DNA of 32,000 nt. It comes from Vibrio alginolyticus NBRC 15630 = ATCC 17749. Lineage in GTDB: Bacteria; Pseudomonadota; Gammaproteobacteria; Enterobacterales; Vibrionaceae. Below, piece after piece: positions 14,923 to 30,658 of this stretch. The translations under genes were made by a program, and so were the position numbers. The notes below the pieces were generated by a model. The model was not told the DNA's origin. It did no database searches and saw nothing but the letters and a program-made list of their open reading frames with translations. Position 1 is the stretch's first letter; each line of letters starts with the position of its first letter. The stretch spans positions 1,500,001-1,532,000 of the forward strand of contig NC_022349.1 of assembly GCF_000354175.2 (NCBI RefSeq). Reading direction: 5' to 3'.

Positions 14923-15112
14923 TTTAAAATCCTCTATGGGGTTAGGCCTCCACATTCCCCATAACTCCGACCAAGCTTCTGCTCAGCACCCCGGAATATG
15001 TGACGGAATGTGTGTGATTTAAAGATAAAAGGTTATTCGGATGAAGCTTGCTTCGCCGCTTAACTTTGCTAAACGAAGAGAACAGTCCTCTATTCCGGCG
15101 CGCTTTATACCA
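14923..15112 (-). promoter_or_regulatory. rpsB promoter (extended -10 TGGTATAAA) plus a ~170-nt structured leader (candidate S2 autoregulatory leader)
   Basis: Plus-strand tttatacca at 15104-15112 reads TGGTATAAA on the minus strand. The long untranslated leader is comparable in length to the E. coli rpsB 5'UTR, which is known to mediate S2 feedback. Confidence 0.45.
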
Positions 15113-22506: not shown

Positions 22507-22754
22507 ATCTGTTCCTTGATTACAACAAACTTAATCTATCCGCAGATCACAAACTCGATGAGCTGAACATGCTCAATGATTGCGGGCATAACACCTTGTA
22601 GAGAAGCCGAAAGTTAAACCAACTGGTTGGAAAGGATATTGATCTGAGTTGTTTTTTATTAAGTGTTATTAGGAATTTATATATTTTGTGATATTGATAT
22701 CCCCAAGCAACATCGAGATGCTTAATTCAATGAGAACACTGGATATCGTTTTTA

Positions 22755-22789
22755 TATAAGAAAGACCCCGACACATAAGTATCGGGGTC
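22755..22789 (-). terminator. Rho-independent terminator of the CsrB-like sRNA
   Basis: The minus strand reads GACCCCGA-tacttatgtg-TCGGGGTC (plus 22764-22789) followed by TTTCTTAT. Confidence 0.8.
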
Positions 22790-23162
22790 ATGGTCTTACT
22801 CGCAGCAGTCCGGCTACTAAAAGTGCTCCATGCATCATCCATAATAGTGGCTGATTCCGTCAGCTTATTCCTTACGTCGCCGTCCTAGCGGTGTCCTTAT
22901 CATCCTGACTGCTAACATTCCTCGTTAGCACACGTCACTTGTTCCTTGAGCGGTGTCCCTTGCATCTTCCTGATGCTGTCCATAACCTCAATCCTAGAGG
23001 GTCCATTGTCTATCCTTAGTCATCAACATCCTATTGATGATCGTATCCTTACAATGTCCTACGCTCCATGCTTGATTAATCATCCTGACCAACCAAATCG
23101 TCTTCCTGACGATAACCAAATCCTTGGTGCTTTCCTGTTCCATGTCTGCTTCCTGCTGACAA
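22758..23162 (-). ncRNA. csrB: CsrB-family CsrA-sequestering sRNA (~400 nt; 5' end approximate)
   Basis: By manual count, 26 GGA motifs (17 of them AGGA) lie on the minus strand between 22,790 and 23,161, and none on the plus strand. Many sit in short hairpin loops, e.g. CGTC-AGGAA-GACG, GCATC-AGGAA-GATGC, GCTAAC-GAGGAAT-GTTAGC and CATCAA-TAGGAT-GTTGATG. The RNA has a terminator at its 3' end and a promoter and GacA box upstream. The only ORF here is an antisense low-complexity 81-aa artefact. Confidence 0.88.
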
Positions 23163-23416: not shown

Positions 23417-23710
23417 ATGTTAACTCAAGACGTTACTAAAGAATTAGAAGCGGTAATGGAACAACTGCAACAACAAGGAAAAGAACCAACCGTAGCGTTA
23501 GTGAAAGCACGCTTGAAAACGCCCGTCCCAATGCCTGCATTAATCACCGCAATAAAAAGTTGGAAAAGTGCTCAGCGTGTTCCCAAGGTTGAAGTCGCAG
23601 CACAAGCGCACACCGATAATGATCGTCTTGCAGCGCTAGAAAGCACGGTGAAAAAATTAGTGGCTCGTATTGAAGAGCTAGAAGCCAAGCTAAGTGAGAA
23701 ATCATCATGA
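23417..23710 (+). CDS. Small KfrA_N-like DNA-binding protein with a C-terminal coiled coil
   Basis: 97 aa. [34 protein letters not shown] fits the KfrA N-terminal pattern G..PT...V+..L......I...I..WK. The C-terminal part is a heptad-like helix ([22 protein letters not shown]). AAGGA Shine-Dalgarno sequence upstream. Confidence 0.7.
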
Positions 23711-24174: not shown

Positions 24175-24201
24175 TGAGCCAGCAAATAAAAGCCTGGCTC
24201 A
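24175..24201 (+). terminator. Weak hairpin after yaiI (poor T-tract)
   Basis: TGAGCCAG-11 nt loop-CTGGCTCA followed by TTCCTGAAAATT. Probably a leaky terminator at best. Confidence 0.3.
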
Positions 24202-24350
24202 TTCCTGAAAATTCATTCTCAGCATTGCACCCAAAGCGTGCTCTTACTCCCATTTGTTTTGTTCTGTTTATTTTTCATCTCGCTCACCATAGCTTCAATA
24301 TGCAACGTGGTTTATTTTGAACGACGTTTTTAATAAGTGTATAGAGAATA

Positions 24351-25340
24351 ATGGGCTTTAACATCGTTTCCAGTGGAAGCTACCTGCCAACGAATCAATG
24401 GTCTGATCGAGAGATGGATCACTTCCTAAAATTAGCGCCAGGGACCTGCCGAAATAAATTCGACGTTGAATATCGTCATGTAGCCAATACAAAAGAGACC
24501 GCTATTTACATGGCGGTGCAGGCAATAGAGCAGTGTTTAGGAAACACACATACCTTAAGCTCCGTTGATCTCCTTATCTACGCTAGCGGTACACACCACC
24601 AGTCTCTACCCTACGACGCTTCAGCGGTTCTCGCCGCGTTAGACGCTCCAACATGGCTAGAAAGCTTTGATTTGAACAGCACCTGTTTATCCTTTCTCTC
24701 TGCGCTTGATCTTGCTCAGAGTCTATTCTTAGCAAAACGGTACCGTCGGATTCTTATTGTCACCAGCGAACTCGCCACTGGCATCACACTGAATCGAAAT
24801 TTTACGCTCAAACCAGAAGTTGCAACCTTATTCGCGGACGGTGCCGCCGCATTTTTGCTCGAAGAACACAACGATGATGGATTGCTCACCAGTCACTTTG
24901 AAACGCATCATACCGGGTATTCATTTTGTCAAATTAAGGGCGGAGGTAGTCATATCAATCCGCATACCTCCGAGCATCAAGCCTATTTAAAAAGTTGCCA
25001 GTTTGAGATGGAGGGCAAAGCACTCTTTAAACATGTGCGTAAAGCCTTACCAGCGTTTCTAAAAAAAGGGTTTGACGCCTCTCCGGTAACACTCGGCGAT
25101 ATTGATTATTTTCTTCCTCATCAAGCCAGCGCGCATGGATTAAAAAAACTGCCTTCACTCACCGGGCTACCAACAGAGAAAACCGTTAATCACTTTTCGA
25201 CTTTGGGAAACCAAGTCGCCGCCTCACTCCCAATTAACTTACACTGGCTGCGTAATCAGCCAGAAACCGCAGGAAAACATGTGTTATTAGCTGGCACCGC
25301 CGCAGGGTTGTCACTAGGGATGGGAGTGCTAAAACTATGA
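24351..25340 (+). CDS. FabH-like 3-oxoacyl-ACP synthase III (KAS III) family condensing enzyme
   Basis: 329 aa, collinear with FabH. N-terminus IVSSGSYLP, catalytic Cys context DLNSTCLSFLSAL, LFADGAAAFLL, His in YFLPHQAS, Asn in LGNQVAASLP. The Cys-His-Asn triad is intact. Confidence 0.9.
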   Translation: MGFNIVSSGSYLPTNQWSDREMDHFLKLAPGTCRNKFDVEYRHVANTKETAIYMAVQAIEQCLGNTHTLSSVDLLIYASGTHHQSLPYDASAVLAALDAPTWLESFDLNSTCLSFLSALDLAQSLFLAKRYRRILIVTSELATGITLNRNFTLKPEVATLFADGAAAFLLEEHNDDGLLTSHFETHHTGYSFCQIKGGGSHINPHTSEHQAYLKSCQFEMEGKALFKHVRKALPAFLKKGFDASPVTLGDIDYFLPHQASAHGLKKLPSLTGLPTEKTVNHFSTLGNQVAASLPINLHWLRNQPETAGKHVLLAGTAAGLSLGMGVLKL

Positions 25341-26323
25341 AGATATTGGTCACTGGTGGCAGCGGGATGTTGGGTAGCGCAATTCTGAGAATGTTTCACC
25401 AGCAGCATGAACTGCATTTTACAGCACGAAATACAGTCATCGCTAAACAACTCGCCGAGCAATTCGATGTTATCCCACATATAGTCGATTTAAGAGACCA
25501 CTCAGCAGTTCATGCGGTATGCCAAGGTATGGATGCAATCATCCATTGTGCCGCTCTCTCAAGCCCATGGGGAAAATGGCAGGCGTTTTATCAAGCCAAT
25601 GTAGATGCCACCAAAAACCTCGTCAATGCGGCTAATACCCATCAAATCTCGCGTTTTATCCATATTTCCTCCACCAGCGTCTACTTTGACCATCAAGACC
25701 GTTGGAATATTCGAGAAACCGGCGCCATAGCTTCATACTGGTGTAATGATTATGCACACACAAAATACCTATCGGAAATTGAAGCCGTAAAAGGCCAAAG
25801 CAAAGCGATCATTTTAAGACCGCGTGGCATTTTTGGACCCAATGATCGCGCGATTGTCCCAAGAGTGCTTAAGGCGATAAAAAACAACACTCTGCTTCTG
25901 CCATCGGGTAGAAATCCTGTGGTTGATCTGACTTATGTCGATAACGTTGCCCATGCAGCGATGCTCGCTTGCACTCAGGCAGACCGACTTCAGCATGGTG
26001 ATGTGTTCAACATTTCCAACAACGAACCAATGCCAATTGAGACTGTTCTGCAAGCTTTATGTGAGGGGTTAAACCTAAAAGTAACGTTACAATCATTACC
26101 ATATGGCGTTGTATCACCATTATTAAAGCTCAGTGAGCAAATACGAAGGCACCTACCACATCAGCCAGAACCAAGGCTCACCTCATACAGCGCAGGATTA
26201 TTTAACTATCATCAAACTCTGGATATCAGCAAGGCTAAACAAACACTGAATTATCAACCGCTTTTTTCAATTCAAGAAGGAATACAGCAGTATGCAAACT
26301 GGTCTAAAAATAAAAATCTTTGA
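25337..26323 (+). CDS. Extended-SDR NAD(P)-dependent oxidoreductase (epimerase/dehydratase, 3beta-HSD-like)
   Basis: 328 aa with Rossmann motif ILVTGGSGMLGS, DAIIHCAAL, catalytic YAHTKYLSE (YxxxK) and ILRPRGIFGP. ATGA overlap with the upstream gene. Confidence 0.9.
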   Translation: MKILVTGGSGMLGSAILRMFHQQHELHFTARNTVIAKQLAEQFDVIPHIVDLRDHSAVHAVCQGMDAIIHCAALSSPWGKWQAFYQANVDATKNLVNAANTHQISRFIHISSTSVYFDHQDRWNIRETGAIASYWCNDYAHTKYLSEIEAVKGQSKAIILRPRGIFGPNDRAIVPRVLKAIKNNTLLLPSGRNPVVDLTYVDNVAHAAMLACTQADRLQHGDVFNISNNEPMPIETVLQALCEGLNLKVTLQSLPYGVVSPLLKLSEQIRRHLPHQPEPRLTSYSAGLFNYHQTLDISKAKQTLNYQPLFSIQEGIQQYANWSKNKNL

Positions 26324-27155
26324 GGCTGGACACTGCGTACACCCAGGCTTTGTTGTCAAACCAGGTTCTGGTATCAAGCCTAGAGCATTTCCGGCAGCCG
26401 TTGCGTTAATTCAGCACCCAACACAAGGCAACATCCTGTTTGACACGGGATATCACGAGCATTTTTTTAGCGCGACTCGTCCCTTCCCTGAACGTTTTTA
26501 TGCTTGGACAACACCTTGTCGCTATAAAAAAGAACACGGAATTGTTGCGCAGTTAGCAAAAGAAAGTCTCAAACCTCATGATATTGAACACTTAGTGCTC
26601 TCCCACTTCCATGCTGATCACATTGCGGCCGTGTCTGAGTTTTCCCACTCTCAATTGCATTGCCAACAAAAAGGGGTGGATGCAATTACTAAAAGTGGTC
26701 GAATTGGAGGCGTAAGAAAAGGATACCTAAAAGCTCTACTTCCTCCACAACTTGAATCTAACTTATTCATTCATAGTGATTTTTCTGTATCAATCAGCCA
26801 AATTCTTCCTCAGTGCCAAGGTGTTAATTTGCTCTGTAAAGACATGTTCGACGATGGATTTATTTATATGGTTAGCTTGCCAGGCCATGCAGCTGGCCAA
26901 GTGGGCTTGCTGGTTAAAAGAGACCAAGGTTGGCTGTTCTTACTCGCCGATGCATGCTGGTTAATCGAGAGCTTGAGTGAAAATATCGATCAACATTGGC
27001 TGGCGAACATGCTTTGCGATGATACAAAAGCCTACAAAAACACCCTCTCCGAGTTGAGAAGTTGCTACCAACAAACCCACCACTTTGTTCGCTTCGTGCC
27101 TTCACATTGTCAGGAAACTATCCAGCAGCTAATCAAAGAAGGATGGATGAAGTGA
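26292..27155 (+). CDS. MBL-fold metallo-hydrolase (lactonase or thioesterase-like)
   Basis: 287 aa with HxHxDH (LSHFHADHIAA), a later His in LPGHAAGQ, Asp in LLADACW and a distal His in VPSHCQE. The only ATG start gives a 32-nt overlap with the SDR gene. Confidence 0.88.
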   Translation: MQTGLKIKIFEAGHCVHPGFVVKPGSGIKPRAFPAAVALIQHPTQGNILFDTGYHEHFFSATRPFPERFYAWTTPCRYKKEHGIVAQLAKESLKPHDIEHLVLSHFHADHIAAVSEFSHSQLHCQQKGVDAITKSGRIGGVRKGYLKALLPPQLESNLFIHSDFSVSISQILPQCQGVNLLCKDMFDDGFIYMVSLPGHAAGQVGLLVKRDQGWLFLLADACWLIESLSENIDQHWLANMLCDDTKAYKNTLSELRSCYQQTHHFVRFVPSHCQETIQQLIKEGWMK

Positions 27156-28411
27156 GAACGCTTATCTCAGAATTCTGGCGAACCCGCTACCGCCCCTTCG
27201 GCTCAAGGGAACAAGTCGAAACATGGCAGCAACAACACTTAACGCAACACTTGGATTGGGTATGCCGCCATTCACCGTATTACCGCTCACTTCAAGGTGC
27301 ACCACTCAGTGATTTCCCTATCATGAATAAGCAAACCATGATGGAGAACCTTTCAGAGTTGAATACGAAGGGCTTAGATGCTGAACAGTTAATGCAGCAG
27401 GCACTCAAAGCAGAGCAGTCACGCAACTTTGCCGCTTCGAAAGTTGGCGATGTTACGGTTGGGCTTTCTTCGGGCACATCAGGCATGCGCGGGCTGTTTC
27501 TTGCTGACAAACAGGAAACGCAACTGTGGGCTGGCAATATATTGGCTCGCCTGTTGCCCAACCTATGGCAAAAGCACCGAATTGCGCTAGCCTTGCGCGC
27601 CAACAGCCCACTGTATAAATCCGTCGCGAAAGGCCCTGTCACATTCTTTTATGCGGATTTAACTAAACCTTACCAAGAATGGATAAAAGAATTGGATGAG
27701 TTCCAACCCACGCTTTTGGTTGGTAGTGCGCAAGCTCTTCAGCTCTGCGCCCAGTTCAGCGGTCAATTTGGTCAACCCGCAATTCAACCACAGCGGATCA
27801 TTTCTGGTGCAGAAGTCCTAACTGAGAGTGACCGTCACTTTATTTCTCAACGGTTCGACAGCGAACTCCATGAAGTCTATCAATGTACCGAAGGTTTTCT
27901 TGCATGTACTGAACAGCATGGACAAATGCGCTGGAATCAAGATGTTGTTTACATCGAAAAACATTGGCTGAATACCGAACGTACTCATTACAGCCCAATT
28001 ATCACCGATTTTCGTCGTAAAACTCAGCCCATTATTCGTTATCAGCTCGACGATATTATTGAGAATAAACAGGATAATGGCGTATTTGAACCTCTTGGCG
28101 CGATTGCCGGACGATGTGGTGATCGCCTCACGCTAAACGCAAACCACGTCCCAGTGACGGTGTTACCAGATCTCATCTACCGCGCTATAACACTATCCGC
28201 CCAAAGTCGCGTGGATTACCGAATCACCCAAACAGGGTCACAAGCCATTCAAATTGAAGCGGATGTTCACCACCATCGGGTTATACATCAAGCCTTGATA
28301 AAGTTGTTTGACCAATTGCGGCTTGATCCTGTCAGATTTAGTTACCGCCCTGCGCCTATTTGGACGCCAATGAATAAACAACGACGTGTGGTGAACATAT
28401 GCGGGTCTTAA
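27143..28411 (+). CDS. F390 synthetase-related / PaaK-like adenylate-forming enzyme
   Basis: ORF-track start 27062 trimmed to the ATG at 27143 (MDEVRTLISEFWRTRY...). An alternative is GTG 27152, which forms a GTGA overlap with the upstream stop. ANL motifs are GLSSGTSGMRGLF (P-loop-like) and YQCTEG. Confidence 0.85.
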   Translation: MDEVRTLISEFWRTRYRPFGSREQVETWQQQHLTQHLDWVCRHSPYYRSLQGAPLSDFPIMNKQTMMENLSELNTKGLDAEQLMQQALKAEQSRNFAASKVGDVTVGLSSGTSGMRGLFLADKQETQLWAGNILARLLPNLWQKHRIALALRANSPLYKSVAKGPVTFFYADLTKPYQEWIKELDEFQPTLLVGSAQALQLCAQFSGQFGQPAIQPQRIISGAEVLTESDRHFISQRFDSELHEVYQCTEGFLACTEQHGQMRWNQDVVYIEKHWLNTERTHYSPIITDFRRKTQPIIRYQLDDIIENKQDNGVFEPLGAIAGRCGDRLTLNANHVPVTVLPDLIYRAITLSAQSRVDYRITQTGSQAIQIEADVHHHRVIHQALIKLFDQLRLDPVRFSYRPAPIWTPMNKQRRVVNICGS

Positions 28412-29511
28412 TCACCGGAGCCCGAGCACCAGTTGCACTAGAGTGGGCAACCATGTGTATGCATCATGGGCATGAAGTAATTCTCACCGATTCGCTAAAA
28501 AAGCCTCTGGGATCATTTTTGCGAGGTATCGAGTCTTATATACCCACCGCTTCACCTCGATTTACGTTTCCCACCTATCAACAGCAGATCCTAAAAATCA
28601 TTACTCAGATGCGTATTGATATAGTGATACCCACTTGTGAAGAAGTTTATTACTTGGCTCATGTTGCCAAACAATGCCCAGAAGTAGATTTTTTTCTGCC
28701 CAATGTGGGACTACTCAATGCCCTGCACAACAAGTTGACCGTCTTTGAACAGCTTCAAGGTTTGCCAGAAATCACACTTCCAAAAACTCGTTTGGTCGCT
28801 GATAAAAGTGAGATTGAAATTAATAAGAGAACCGTTCTAAAACCCGTTTACTCTCGGTTTGGCGGGCAAGTCATAAGAGATGTGACGACTCAGTCTATTT
28901 CTGCCGCCACGATATCGCCCCTTTTCCCTTGGGTTCAGCAACAAAAAATCCATGGGACTCCGGTGTGTAACTATGCCATTTTTGAACATGGTGACCTTAA
29001 AGCACACCAAGCTTATGTGCCGAAATACTGTGTAAACGGCTCGGCCGCCAGTGCTTTTCAGCCGATCTCGTGCGAACGACTAGATACATTTATCGCAGCT
29101 TTTGGTAAACGTCATACTTATCATGGGCAAGTGTCGTTTGACTTCATCAAATCACAAGATGAACTCTACGTGATTGAATGTAACCCAAGAGCCACCAGTG
29201 GTTTGCACCTACTCTCGTCTCGATGCAACCAACTGCTTCCTAATATGGAGTTTACCAGTCCTTCCGAGCAGCGATTGCATCATTTAGGTCCAATAACACT
29301 CATCGCTGAAGGCGGGTTATCCCTGTTCAAGGCTCGAACTTGGCTAGATTGGTGGTCTGGAGTGAATGTGATGCAACAGCATAACTTACCGGTCGGGAGC
29401 CAAATCCGGAGTATGTTTGAATTACTCCGGTTAGCTAGGCAGAACAAGACGAAGTGGAGCGACGCTTCTACCGTTGATATTGAGTGGAATGGAGAGGCAT
29501 TGAACTCATGA
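28399..29511 (+). CDS. ATP-grasp family ligase
   Basis: 370 aa with an N-terminal pre-ATP-grasp Rossmann-like segment (MRVLITGARAPVALE), ATP-binding Lys context VLKPVYSRFG and a Mg/ATP site in LYVIECNPRATSG. 13-nt overlap with the upstream gene. Confidence 0.85.
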   Translation: MRVLITGARAPVALEWATMCMHHGHEVILTDSLKKPLGSFLRGIESYIPTASPRFTFPTYQQQILKIITQMRIDIVIPTCEEVYYLAHVAKQCPEVDFFLPNVGLLNALHNKLTVFEQLQGLPEITLPKTRLVADKSEIEINKRTVLKPVYSRFGGQVIRDVTTQSISAATISPLFPWVQQQKIHGTPVCNYAIFEHGDLKAHQAYVPKYCVNGSAASAFQPISCERLDTFIAAFGKRHTYHGQVSFDFIKSQDELYVIECNPRATSGLHLLSSRCNQLLPNMEFTSPSEQRLHHLGPITLIAEGGLSLFKARTWLDWWSGVNVMQQHNLPVGSQIRSMFELLRLARQNKTKWSDASTVDIEWNGEALNS

Positions 29512-30581
29512 CACTTTCCTCTCAAGAATGGCATCAAACCTTTATCACTCTCATGCAGTCAAATCCTATTGATGAATGCACAGCAAGCTTTGGTTGCTAC
29601 TATATCGATGACGTTGCCATTCCTTACTCCGTAACACCAAAAATACCAAACAACTGTTATGCAGTCTCCCCTATGACACTGCTTAGTGGCTACGCCGAAG
29701 AAGAGCTTCACAAAGTCAAAAATGTGGCTGTTCGATGGGTATGTAAGTTACTTATTAATATGACTAAACCAATCTTATCACTGGCTGGATTGGATCAAGT
29801 CCAAACGCTCAACAATCAGTGCTTGTCCACCAATATGTATAGCGAACAATGGGCAGCCTTAAATCTCGATGAACTGCGTCGCGTCGCACGCGATCAATAC
29901 CCCACCTTTCCCTTGGTGCTTCGCTCCCTCAACCAGCGTCAGCATTTACACTTAATTCAGCGATTGAAGCAGCCAAAATGGCAAAGCTTGGTAACACGAC
30001 AAGTGTATTTACTTGATGATTGGCAAGCGTTCAGCTTCAACCGAGATTTAACGAAAGACTTCAAACTGCTTAATGATAAAGATTGGCAGTTTAGGCCACT
30101 GACCACTGATGAAGAGTTTCAGCGTGCCAAAGAGTTATATGACATGCTTTACCTTGATAAATACAGCCTCAATAACATACAGTTTTCAACCCAATATTTA
30201 AAACAGGCGAGCCAGAACAAATTAGTACAGTTAGTGGGACTGTTTTATCAAGAAGAGATGCTGGCTACGTTAGGCATTGTAGAAATTGATAATGATATGA
30301 CTTGCCCAATTTTTGGCTACGATACCAATAAGCCACAACGCCTCGCATTGTATCGTCGAATATCGGCCTATACCATCCGCCACGCAATGATATTCCAGCG
30401 TCGCTTTAATATGAGCTCAGGTGCTCCGGCTTTTAAACGCAACAGAAAAGCCCGGCCAGAAATTGAATTTAGCTATGTTTATATTGCGCACTTACCTTGG
30501 TACAAACGCATAATTTGGAAAAGCTTATGCTGGCTCACTCAGCACTTTTATCGCCCTTTGTTGATGCGTTTTCAGCTATAA
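29508..30581 (+). CDS. Uncharacterised protein with a C-terminal FemAB/CelD-like (GNAT-fold) acyltransferase-like region
   Basis: ORF-track start 29484 trimmed to ATG 29508 (MTLSSQEWH...), an ATGA overlap with the ATP-grasp stop. The C-terminal segment GYDTNKPQRLALYRRISAYTIRHAMIFQRRFNMSSGAPAFKRNRKARP resembles the G..D....LY...i..A...g...f.mg.Ga..fK..RGa.P pattern of FemAB/CelD-like acyltransferases. I see no motif in the N-terminal ~200 aa. Confidence 0.7.
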   Translation: MTLSSQEWHQTFITLMQSNPIDECTASFGCYYIDDVAIPYSVTPKIPNNCYAVSPMTLLSGYAEEELHKVKNVAVRWVCKLLINMTKPILSLAGLDQVQTLNNQCLSTNMYSEQWAALNLDELRRVARDQYPTFPLVLRSLNQRQHLHLIQRLKQPKWQSLVTRQVYLLDDWQAFSFNRDLTKDFKLLNDKDWQFRPLTTDEEFQRAKELYDMLYLDKYSLNNIQFSTQYLKQASQNKLVQLVGLFYQEEMLATLGIVEIDNDMTCPIFGYDTNKPQRLALYRRISAYTIRHAMIFQRRFNMSSGAPAFKRNRKARPEIEFSYVYIAHLPWYKRIIWKSLCWLTQHFYRPLLMRFQL

Positions 30582-30628: not shown

Positions 30629-30658
30629 AAAAAAGCCTGCGACGTTCGCAGGCTTTTT
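30629..30658. terminator. Bidirectional rho-independent terminator (end of six-gene operon / AbgT gene)
   Basis: AAAAA-GCCTGCGA-cgt-TCGCAGGC-TTTTT between convergent genes. Confidence 0.85.

Follow-up and report, generated by a model that had tools for sequence, protein, structure and literature searches.

What might an operon produce that joins a condensing enzyme, a reductase, a hydrolase, two ligases and a transferase? This question is raised by six genes of Vibrio alginolyticus NBRC 15630 that lie in the 32,000-nucleotide (nt) stretch of DNA analysed here (contig NC_022349.1, positions 1,500,001 to 1,532,000; hereafter the window). The genes, g1 to g6, encode in this order a condensing enzyme resembling ketoacyl synthase (KAS) III, an extended short-chain dehydrogenase/reductase (SDR), a hydrolase with the metallo-beta-lactamase (MBL) fold, an adenylate-forming ligase resembling PaaK, an ATP-grasp ligase, and a transferase with a duplicated GCN5-related N-acetyltransferase (GNAT) fold. 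An earlier note, made from the sequence of the window, had described them as an orphan biosynthetic operon. In this study, the operon was found to be the V. alginolyticus-type copy of a biosynthetic cassette that is modular in build and moves horizontally; it is a carrier-free, KAS III-based acyl biosynthetic operon.

Distribution and modular organization

Relatives of g4 were found in at least 591 species genomes, and the g4 family comprises more than 4189 clusters at 90% identity. The g5 family contains 2791 clusters at E ≤ 0.001, and for g6 a search of 1.84 billion proteins gave 891 representatives (50% identity, E ≤ 1e-30). The 90%-identity clusters that contain g4, g5 and g6 themselves hold 768, 570 and 535 member sequences, respectively. 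The best 80 of the at least 591 g4-related loci made up the locus set, and tblastn of the six proteins was run on 85 loci. The g1-g4 core was encoded on one strand in 65 of the 70 loci with enough flanking sequence; all six genes were present in 39, g1-g5 in 17 and g1-g4 in 9, with g5 found in 56. The co-conservation of the six genes, on which their reading as a unit had been staked, is thus strong, but the unit is not indivisible and consists of a g1-g4 core and a separable g5-g6 pair.

The loci span at least seven phyla: Pseudomonadota, Campylobacterota, Bacillota, Bacteroidota, Cyanobacteriota/Vampirovibrionia, Patescibacteria and Elusimicrobiota. Carriers among the Gamma- and Alphaproteobacteria include Vibrio, Motilimonas, Hahella, Zooshikella, Shewanella, Legionellales and Pararhizobium. 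The Campylobacterota are represented by Sulfuricurvum, Sulfurovum and Arcobacter, and the Bacillota by the Bacillus cereus group, Paenibacillus, Brevibacillus, Enterococcus and Clostridia; further carriers belong to Bacteroidota, Cyanobacteria, Gastranaerophilales, Saccharibacteria and Elusimicrobiota. Plasmid-borne copies occur in 31 records. The conjugative plasmid p237 of Bacillus mycoides carries the full six genes (L087 3035-10508) in the Firmicute order g1-g5-g2-g3-g4-g6 with an IS6 transposase gene adjoining, which is direct evidence of mobility. The word orphan therefore suits the operon in the sense of uncharacterised and not in the sense of rare, given its phylum range, its plasmid copies and a variant in 12% of complete Escherichia coli genomes.

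The SDR, MBL and ligase genes were contiguous and in a fixed order in all loci compared, and the KAS gene moves: it stands first in Gammaproteobacteria and Bacilli and last in Clostridia, Saccharibacteria and Bacteroidota. In one locus (L041), the MBL and ligase genes form a single open reading frame (ORF) of 723 amino acids (aa) with no internal stop, and on a Pseudomonas plasmid this pair stands alone. The ATP-grasp and tandem GNAT parts are fused in three proteins (P0280, 756 aa; P0417, 783 aa; and P0276). Because of these fusions and the separability of the genes, two modules can be distinguished, the core g1-g4 and the decorating pair g5-g6. V. harveyi and V. floridensis (L006 10257-12259 and L010) carry g1-g5 at the equivalent chromosomal site and have no g6, so g6 was gained or lost inside the Harveyi clade. 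In V. harveyi, a gene for a MipA-family outer-membrane protein begins exactly at the g5 stop. Comparison of the window with V. harveyi gave dN/dS values of 0.04-0.10 for g1-g5; these are real genes under purifying selection.

Three curated models effectively describe the cassette, because the orthologues of the Bacillus cereus group score 639 bits against PRK07204, 546 against PRK06849 and 704 against TIGR02304, above all three cut-offs. In the window, g4 and g5 exceed the cut-offs of their models, unlike g1 (230 bits against the PRK07204 cut-off of 402). The labels of the models are 'F390 synthetase-related protein', 'hypothetical protein' and the generic 'beta-ketoacyl-ACP synthase III', none of which gives a function. 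According to the earlier note, homologues of the adenylating enzyme are annotated only as 'F390 synthetase-related'; this is true of TIGR02304, but PRK06849 also covers g5, and PRK07204 is reached by the Bacillus g1 orthologue.

Table 1. Features of the operon and gene content of related cassettes. Positions without a locus name are those of the window.
Feature	Position	Strand	Description
Hairpin after yaiI	24175..24201	+	8-bp stem, 11-nt loop, no T-run; -15.3 kcal/mol, z = -3.7
Leader/promoter region of operon	24202..24350	+	Blocks CAATATGCAAC and TTATTTTGAACGnCGTTTTTAAT conserved among Harveyi-clade vibrios (alignment)
g1, KAS III-like condensing enzyme, 329 aa	24351..25340	+	Pfam ACP_syn_III and ACP_syn_III_C
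g2, extended SDR, 3-beta-HSD type, 328 aa	25337..26323	+	Pfam; G7xxG10xxG13 (TGxxGxxG), Y139xxxK143
g3, MBL-fold hydrolase, 287 aa	26292..27155	+	Pfam; full HxHxDH/H/D/H metal site
g4, PaaK-like adenylate-forming enzyme, 422 aa	27143..28411	+	TIGR02304 'F390 synthetase-related protein'
g5, ATP-grasp carboxylate-amine-type ligase, 370 aa	28399..29511	+	PRK06849 ('hypothetical protein')
g6, tandem (duplicated) GNAT-fold transferase, 357 aa	29508..30581	+	AlphaFold2 model and Foldseek
Bidirectional intrinsic terminator	30630..30658	both	13-bp stem, A-run 5', T-run 3'; common to the convergent AbgT-family transporter gene
E. coli island	L086 5188-12069, L088 4001-10882		KAS, SDR, MBL, ligase, then PAP2_3, FA_hydroxylase, FA_desaturase
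Psychromonas			Core, Rieske/VanA_C oxygenase, DUF3419 (BtaA-like, betaine-lipid synthase family)
Metagenome contig			Core, two DUF3419 genes, one Rieske gene, one g6 homologue
Enterococcus sp.			Core, GT21 (ceramide-glucosyltransferase-type) and GT28 glycosyltransferases
Saccharibacteria			Core, GT4 glycosyltransferase
Granulosicoccaceae metagenome-assembled genome			Core, PAP2, GNAT
Ketogulonicigenium and Paracoccus plasmids (Rhodobacterales)			Core, divergent TetR, sulfotransferase
Rhizobium plasmid			TetR, core, g6-like GNAT, Rieske, ATP-grasp, glycosyltransferase, HlyD

Core enzymes

Profile searches against Pfam and NCBIfam upheld five of the six family assignments in the earlier note, including both ACP_syn_III domains of g1 and the F390-related model for g4. 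The motifs that it had read as intact in these five enzymes were all present, and conservation of the catalytic residues reached at least 97% in sets of 50-82 homologues drawn from several phyla.

In g1, the triad C112/H257/N287 is conserved in the homologues and is the Cys-His-Asn triad of condensing enzymes, not the Cys-His-Cys of thiolases. The protein falls below the cut-offs of both FabH models (134.9 bits against 292.1 for TIGR00747 and 157.1 against 249 for PRK09352). Its context is the cassette, flanked by yaiI and an AbgT-family gene, rather than plsX-fabHDG-acpP. A housekeeping FabH is ruled out on both counts, in agreement with the earlier note. The closest solved structures over the full length of g1 are MxnB (9e-34) and CorB (1e-30), followed by FabH proteins at about 1e-23; PqsD and PqsC are also among the matches, PqsD only at about 1e-13. 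Enzymes of the OleA type depend on an essential Glu base that precedes the active-site Cys by about 25 residues (OleA E117, PpyS E105, NocG E100; PMC4578411; PMC9486936). At this position g1 has Leu86, aligned with Val94 of MxnB, so that an OleA-type (OleA/PpyS/NocG) mechanism is rejected for g1.

The best NCBIfam matches of g2 by far are the OleD models NF042422 and NF042423 (1.5e-51 and 2.9e-52, full length), which describe 2-alkyl-3-oxoalkanoate reductases; the scores of 175.7 and 177.8 bits are far under the cut-off of 580. The closest solved relative is NSDHL, a sterol-4-alpha-carboxylate 3-dehydrogenase (6jkg, 9e-20). OleD and NSDHL, the closest families to g2, interconvert beta-keto and beta-hydroxy free acids. 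The metal site of g3 is formed by H105xH107xD109H110 together with H199, D220 and H272. By sequence, its closest relatives are AttM, AhlS, AiiA, GcL and 4-pyridoxolactonase, and PqsE was not detected among them; the AttM model gives 67.1 bits (1.7e-18), below its cut-off of 390, and the remaining lactonase models score lower. Sequence proximity places g3 in the lactonase branch of the MBL fold.

The g4 protein scores 369.6 bits against TIGR02304 (cut-off 251.9, model positions 5-405 of 430), and its family profile reaches PaaK phenylacetate-CoA ligases (2.4e-13) and PaaK-like ligases such as AjiA1. It carries S109-G-T-S113 of an SSGTSG P-loop, Y246QxTEG251 (YQCTEG) and a C-terminal K412, at least 97% conserved in 82 homologues, and has no match to the AMP-binding Pfam family PF00501. 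Coenzyme F390 synthetase proper is rejected (TIGR03335, 16.7 bits against a cut-off of 458.7), and 'F390' in the family name is historical only. A TTG at 27062 gives the longest ORF for g4, and the ATG at 27143 fits the 422-aa homologues end to end; the TTG start is a longest-ORF artefact. The g4 protein shares 98% identity with a V. alginolyticus protein. When g4, g5 and g6 were compared by sequence with solved structures, no close match emerged.

Proposed decorating pair

The g5 protein scores 445.4 bits against PRK06849, above the cut-off of 406, and K148 and the E260-x-N262 metal site are conserved. The ATP-grasp fold was confirmed by an AlphaFold2 model with a predicted local distance difference test (pLDDT) score of 92. 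As to the substrate, the fold has only generic neighbours, namely PurK, biotin carboxylase, BL00235, RizA and PylC, with template modelling (TM) scores of 0.55-0.61; BL00235 and RizA are L-amino-acid ligases.

For g6, the earlier note had proposed a FemAB-like protein, a call that stands at the level of the fold; the Pfam match that it expected is absent. No Pfam family was matched even at E ≤ 10 and no NCBIfam model, and g6 falls outside PF02388, PF13480 and PF09924; P0025, a distant homologue, is the sole case carrying PF13480 (Acetyltransf_6). The AlphaFold2 model (pLDDT 94, predicted TM score 0.90) matched domains of MprF (5vrv, 4v35, 4v36) and FemX (1ne9, 7z6a) over the full length in Foldseek, with probability 1.0 and TM scores of 0.51-0.54. 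Further structural matches were FemX 4ii9 and the tRNA-dependent peptide synthases Sba18 and Sbb17. From its model, g6 can confidently be predicted to be a tandem GNAT of the type found in FemX and in the MprF domain that acts as aminoacyl-phosphatidylglycerol synthase, at an identity of only 7-13%. It lacks a membrane domain, and its fusion or coupling to an ATP-grasp ligase sets it apart from FemX and MprF. The stretch G305-x-x-x-F309-K310 is conserved in the homologues and may resemble the Phe/Lys motif of FemX.

Accessory genes in other lineages

E. coli provides the most informative case: of 5426 complete genomes, 674 (~12%) carry a seven-gene island flanked by narI and the tyrTV tRNA genes, which is absent from E. 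coli K-12. Over their full length, the core proteins of the island share 32-37% identity with g1-g4, and the three additional proteins (PAP2_3, FA_hydroxylase and FA_desaturase) are multi-pass membrane proteins. Full-text literature searches found no paper on this island. The partners of the core in other lineages are listed in Table 1; outside Vibrio, nearly all of them are lipid-modifying enzymes or enzymes that add a polar group to a hydroxyl.

Genes that recur at the flanks include those for a classical SDR (15-17 loci) and a Rieske/VanA_C oxygenase (8-10 loci). Other recurrent neighbours in the fetched loci were only generic, namely two-component systems, GGDEF proteins and ABC ATPases. 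Genes for TetR and for efflux proteins of the major facilitator superfamily (MFS) or HlyD type adjoin the cassette in Motilimonas, a metagenome contig, Shewanella, Rhizobium and Rhodobacterales. The TetR partners suggest that expression may be switched by a ligand. The cluster of an uncultured Shewanella sp. (L083 11399-17193) contains three g6 paralogues, a serine beta-lactamase-like PF00144 protein and an MFS transporter. Peptidase_S66 genes (LD-carboxypeptidase/MccF-type) adjoin the cassette in two unrelated Firmicute loci (L038 10342-11292 and L052 12917-13831).

Operon boundaries and window context

The six genes, all on the forward strand, fill 24351-30581 with no space between them, and the ORF coordinates, junctions and hairpins described in the earlier note were confirmed, the terminator stem being placed at 30630-30658. 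The overlaps are ATGA at 25337-25340 (g1/g2), 32 nt at 26292-26323 (g2/g3), 13 nt at 27143-27155 (g3/g4), 13 nt at 28399-28411 (g4/g5) and ATGA at 29508-29511 (g5/g6). Also as it had stated, the operon itself contains no gene for a carrier protein, a polyketide synthase (PKS) or non-ribosomal peptide synthetase (NRPS), a regulator or an exporter. All six proteins are predicted to be soluble, with no clear transmembrane segments.

Upstream lies yaiI (DUF188), whose hairpin is probably a weak terminator of that gene and marks the 5' boundary of the operon; its stem is kept, with an altered loop, in V. harveyi and V. floridensis (alignment). Close upstream of g1, the leader block TTATTTTGAACGnCGTTTTTAAT (24295-24335) is almost unchanged across three Harveyi-clade species and may be a promoter or operator. 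In a promoter scan, no consensus sigma-70 site was called ahead of g1, this block included, and the leader matched no Rfam model at E ≤ 1 and contains no known riboswitch. Downstream, the operon and the convergent AbgT-family transporter gene have a common terminator, with folding energies of -19.4 kcal/mol on the forward and -18.9 on the reverse strand (z = -6.4 and -5.7), and no shuffled sequence equals either value; a pattern scanner missed this hairpin because the stem takes in the T-run.

The remainder of the window is ordinary Vibrio chromosome, map and glnD included. Rfam matched a CsrB/RsmB small RNA at 22754-23056 on the reverse strand (89.5 bits against a gathering score of 71), which lies about 1.3 kb ahead of the operon, between a GNAT gene and a small ORF that precedes yaiI, and a t44 RNA at 14941-15034, also on the reverse strand (79.4 bits against 44). 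A 97-aa ORF at 23417-23710 on the forward strand, with no Pfam match, overlaps the yaiI start by 4 nt and has equivalents in V. harveyi (L006 5273-5566) and V. floridensis (L010 5274-5567). Five of the six operon proteins matched no PADLOC defence-system model, and g3 gave only a marginal match to the MBL-type LmuA (E = 1.9e-4); an anti-phage defence reading of the operon is rejected on this result.

Discussion

Our answer to the question of the product, to which we give about an even chance of being right, is that the core g1-g4 builds a beta-hydroxy-acyl scaffold, probably fatty or lipid-like, from acyl thioesters, and that the g5/g6 module decorates it. If each core enzyme is used as its closest relatives work, a condensation followed by a reduction and then by decoration results. 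The PaaK-like ligase g4 would activate a carboxylic acid with ATP, and g1 would form a C-C bond to give a beta-keto-acyl product. The hydrolase g3 might free or process this product by PqsE-like thioester cleavage or by lactone chemistry, and the OleD/NSDHL-like reductase g2 would convert the beta-keto group to a beta-hydroxyl. Then g5 could form an amide at a carboxylate, and g6 could transfer an acyl or aminoacyl group, the latter possibly from aminoacyl-tRNA. In Vibrio, the scaffold would most likely be amidated and/or aminoacylated. We observed the gene content, intact active sites, co-conservation, fusions, folds and lineage-specific module swaps; we infer the step order, which substrates are used, the lipid character of the scaffold and the donor of the aminoacyl group. 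The partner enzymes of the different lineages suggest a fatty or lipid-like scaffold that is usually decorated at its hydroxyl. The earlier note had proposed an acyl or aryl amide or a lactone serving as a signal, antimicrobial or envelope modifier; within that range, the accessory genes of other lineages would favour a fatty-acyl or envelope-lipid scaffold over an aryl one.

Several points weigh against this proposal. The sequence of g3 resembles lactonases, not known MBL thioesterases, and the tight pairing of MBL and ligase, seen in the fused ORF and the stand-alone pair, fits consecutive steps better than a first and a third step. All six Vibrio proteins look soluble, and the operon has no carrier protein. 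An exported small molecule would agree just as well with the TetR, MFS and HlyD genes that adjoin the cassette in several lineages, and the accessory genes of other lineages bear only indirectly on the Vibrio product.

The product may instead be a secreted small metabolite, a signal or antimicrobial, rather than a lipid: a short acyl or aryl acid would be activated, extended by one ketide, reduced and coupled to amino acids to give a diffusible amide or ester. This is in essence the reading that the earlier note preferred, and it is unlikely. It is supported by the regulatory and efflux genes that adjoin the cassette in the five lineages named above, the predicted solubility of the Vibrio proteins, and the typical preference of PaaK-type ligases for aryl-acetic or small acids. 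A precedent exists in the Pseudomonas quinolone signal (PQS) pathway of P. aeruginosa, in which PqsA, PqsD and PqsE, a ligase, a KAS III enzyme and an MBL-fold thioesterase, provide a route to a signal precursor. Like the cassette, this pathway combines an acid-activating ligase, a FabH-like condensing enzyme and an MBL hydrolase and uses no carrier protein, PKS or NRPS, and both PqsD and PqsC match g1. The two differ in that PqsA is a classical ANL ligase whereas g4 is PaaK-like, and in that g3 is nearest to lactonases; the cassette adds an OleD-like reductase and has no PqsBC or PqsH, and PqsD matches g1 at about 1e-13, against the order of 1e-34 for MxnB. The secreted metabolite is further opposed by the genes that replace g5 and g6 elsewhere, which are mostly of membrane-lipid types (PAP2_3, FA_hydroxylase, FA_desaturase, BtaA-like, GT21), and by the absence from the Vibrio operon of an exporter or regulator of its own.

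A beta-lactone route like that of OleABCD is less probable still. Here g1 and g2 would make a beta-hydroxy acid in the manner of OleA and OleD, g4, like OleC, would adenylate it and close a beta- or other lactone, and g3, in the role of OleB, would open, decarboxylate or transfer that lactone. OleABCD likewise comprises a thiolase-superfamily condensing enzyme, a 3-beta-HSD-type beta-keto acid reductase, an adenylate-forming enzyme and a hydrolase, with three genes tightly linked and two sometimes fused; OleB, OleC and OleD form a complex, and OleB-OleC fusions occur, paralleled by the contiguous SDR-MBL-ligase genes and the fusion in L041. OleD is also the best family match of g2, g3 lies near lactonases, and g1 is closest, among solved enzymes, to ones that link two chains head to head. 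Several differences oppose this route: OleC is of the classical AMP-binding type, whereas g4 has no PF00501 match; OleB is an alpha/beta-hydrolase, which the operon lacks, whereas g3 has the MBL fold; g2 reaches 177 against the OleD cut-off of 580; and the cassette has an additional ATP-grasp and tandem-GNAT module, to which a decarboxylated olefin would offer no substrate. Leu86 of g1 also stands where OleA, PpyS and NocG have their essential Glu (PMC4578411; PMC9486936).

The closest solved relatives of g1, MxnB and CorB of the myxopyronin and corallopyronin pathways, form alpha-pyrones by fusing two chains. Like g1, they have the Cys-His-Asn triad and, where OleA carries its Glu, a hydrophobic residue (Val94 in MxnB, Leu86 in g1). 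Unlike g1, they act in trans-acyltransferase PKS/NRPS lines on carrier-bound beta-keto-acyl chains; the Vibrio operon contains neither an assembly line nor a carrier.

A catabolic core, in which g3 opens a lactone, g4 makes a coenzyme A (CoA) ester, g2 oxidises the beta-hydroxyl and g1 cleaves the beta-keto-acyl-CoA, would agree with the tight MBL-ligase pairing and fusion, with AttM, from a lactone-catabolic operon, as the best family match of g3 and with the catabolic role of PaaK itself, but it is highly improbable in view of the condensing rather than thiolase triad of g1, the anabolic decorators joined to the cassette (ATP-grasp, tandem GNAT, glycosyltransferases, BtaA-like, sulfotransferase, desaturase and hydroxylase) and the absence of an uptake system or catabolic regulator from the Vibrio operon.

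The decorated beta-hydroxy-acyl scaffold proposed above might, on a bolder view that we hold only tentatively and think doubtful, extend to the whole cassette family. The family would then define an unrecognised, widespread class of bacterial polar lipids with a beta-hydroxy-acyl anchor, possibly a two-tailed 2-alkyl-3-hydroxy-acyl group, no glycerol or sphingoid base, and a head group swapped by lineage. Under this tentative view, the ATP-grasp ligase and the possibly tRNA-dependent tandem GNAT could supply an amino acid as head group in Vibrio, Bacillus and Campylobacterota, and BtaA-like enzymes a homoserine ether; elsewhere, including the E. coli variant, it could be a sugar, a sulfate or a phospho-head group.

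By analogy, the cassette resembles a cross between the logic of PqsA/PqsD/PqsE and that of OleA/OleD, with a FemX/MprF-like transferase and an ATP-grasp ligase added. It falls outside the FabH, OleA, OleD, acyl-homoserine lactone (AHL) lactonase and F390 synthetase families and belongs only to TIGR02304 and PRK06849, which carry no function. The view that no characterised pathway has this composition was borne out in the full-text literature, where no paper characterising the cassette was found; subscription-only papers lay outside this search, so one could exist.

If the proposed pathway is true, an amino-acid-decorated hydroxy-acyl compound is made by a compact cassette in which carrier protein, NRPS and PKS are all absent. 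At least three of the six protein families carry a placeholder annotation only ('F390 synthetase-related', 'hypothetical protein' or no family at all), and an identified product would assign a function to thousands of genes together. It would also define what task a tandem GNAT that is FemX/MprF-like but soluble performs in partnership with an ATP-grasp ligase, and the swaps of the decorating module give a comparative handle on the cassette. The carriers include V. alginolyticus, V. harveyi, the Bacillus cereus group and Legionellales, and the E. coli variant occurs in about one-eighth of complete genomes. The product may be a new envelope lipid or signal relevant to pathogens.

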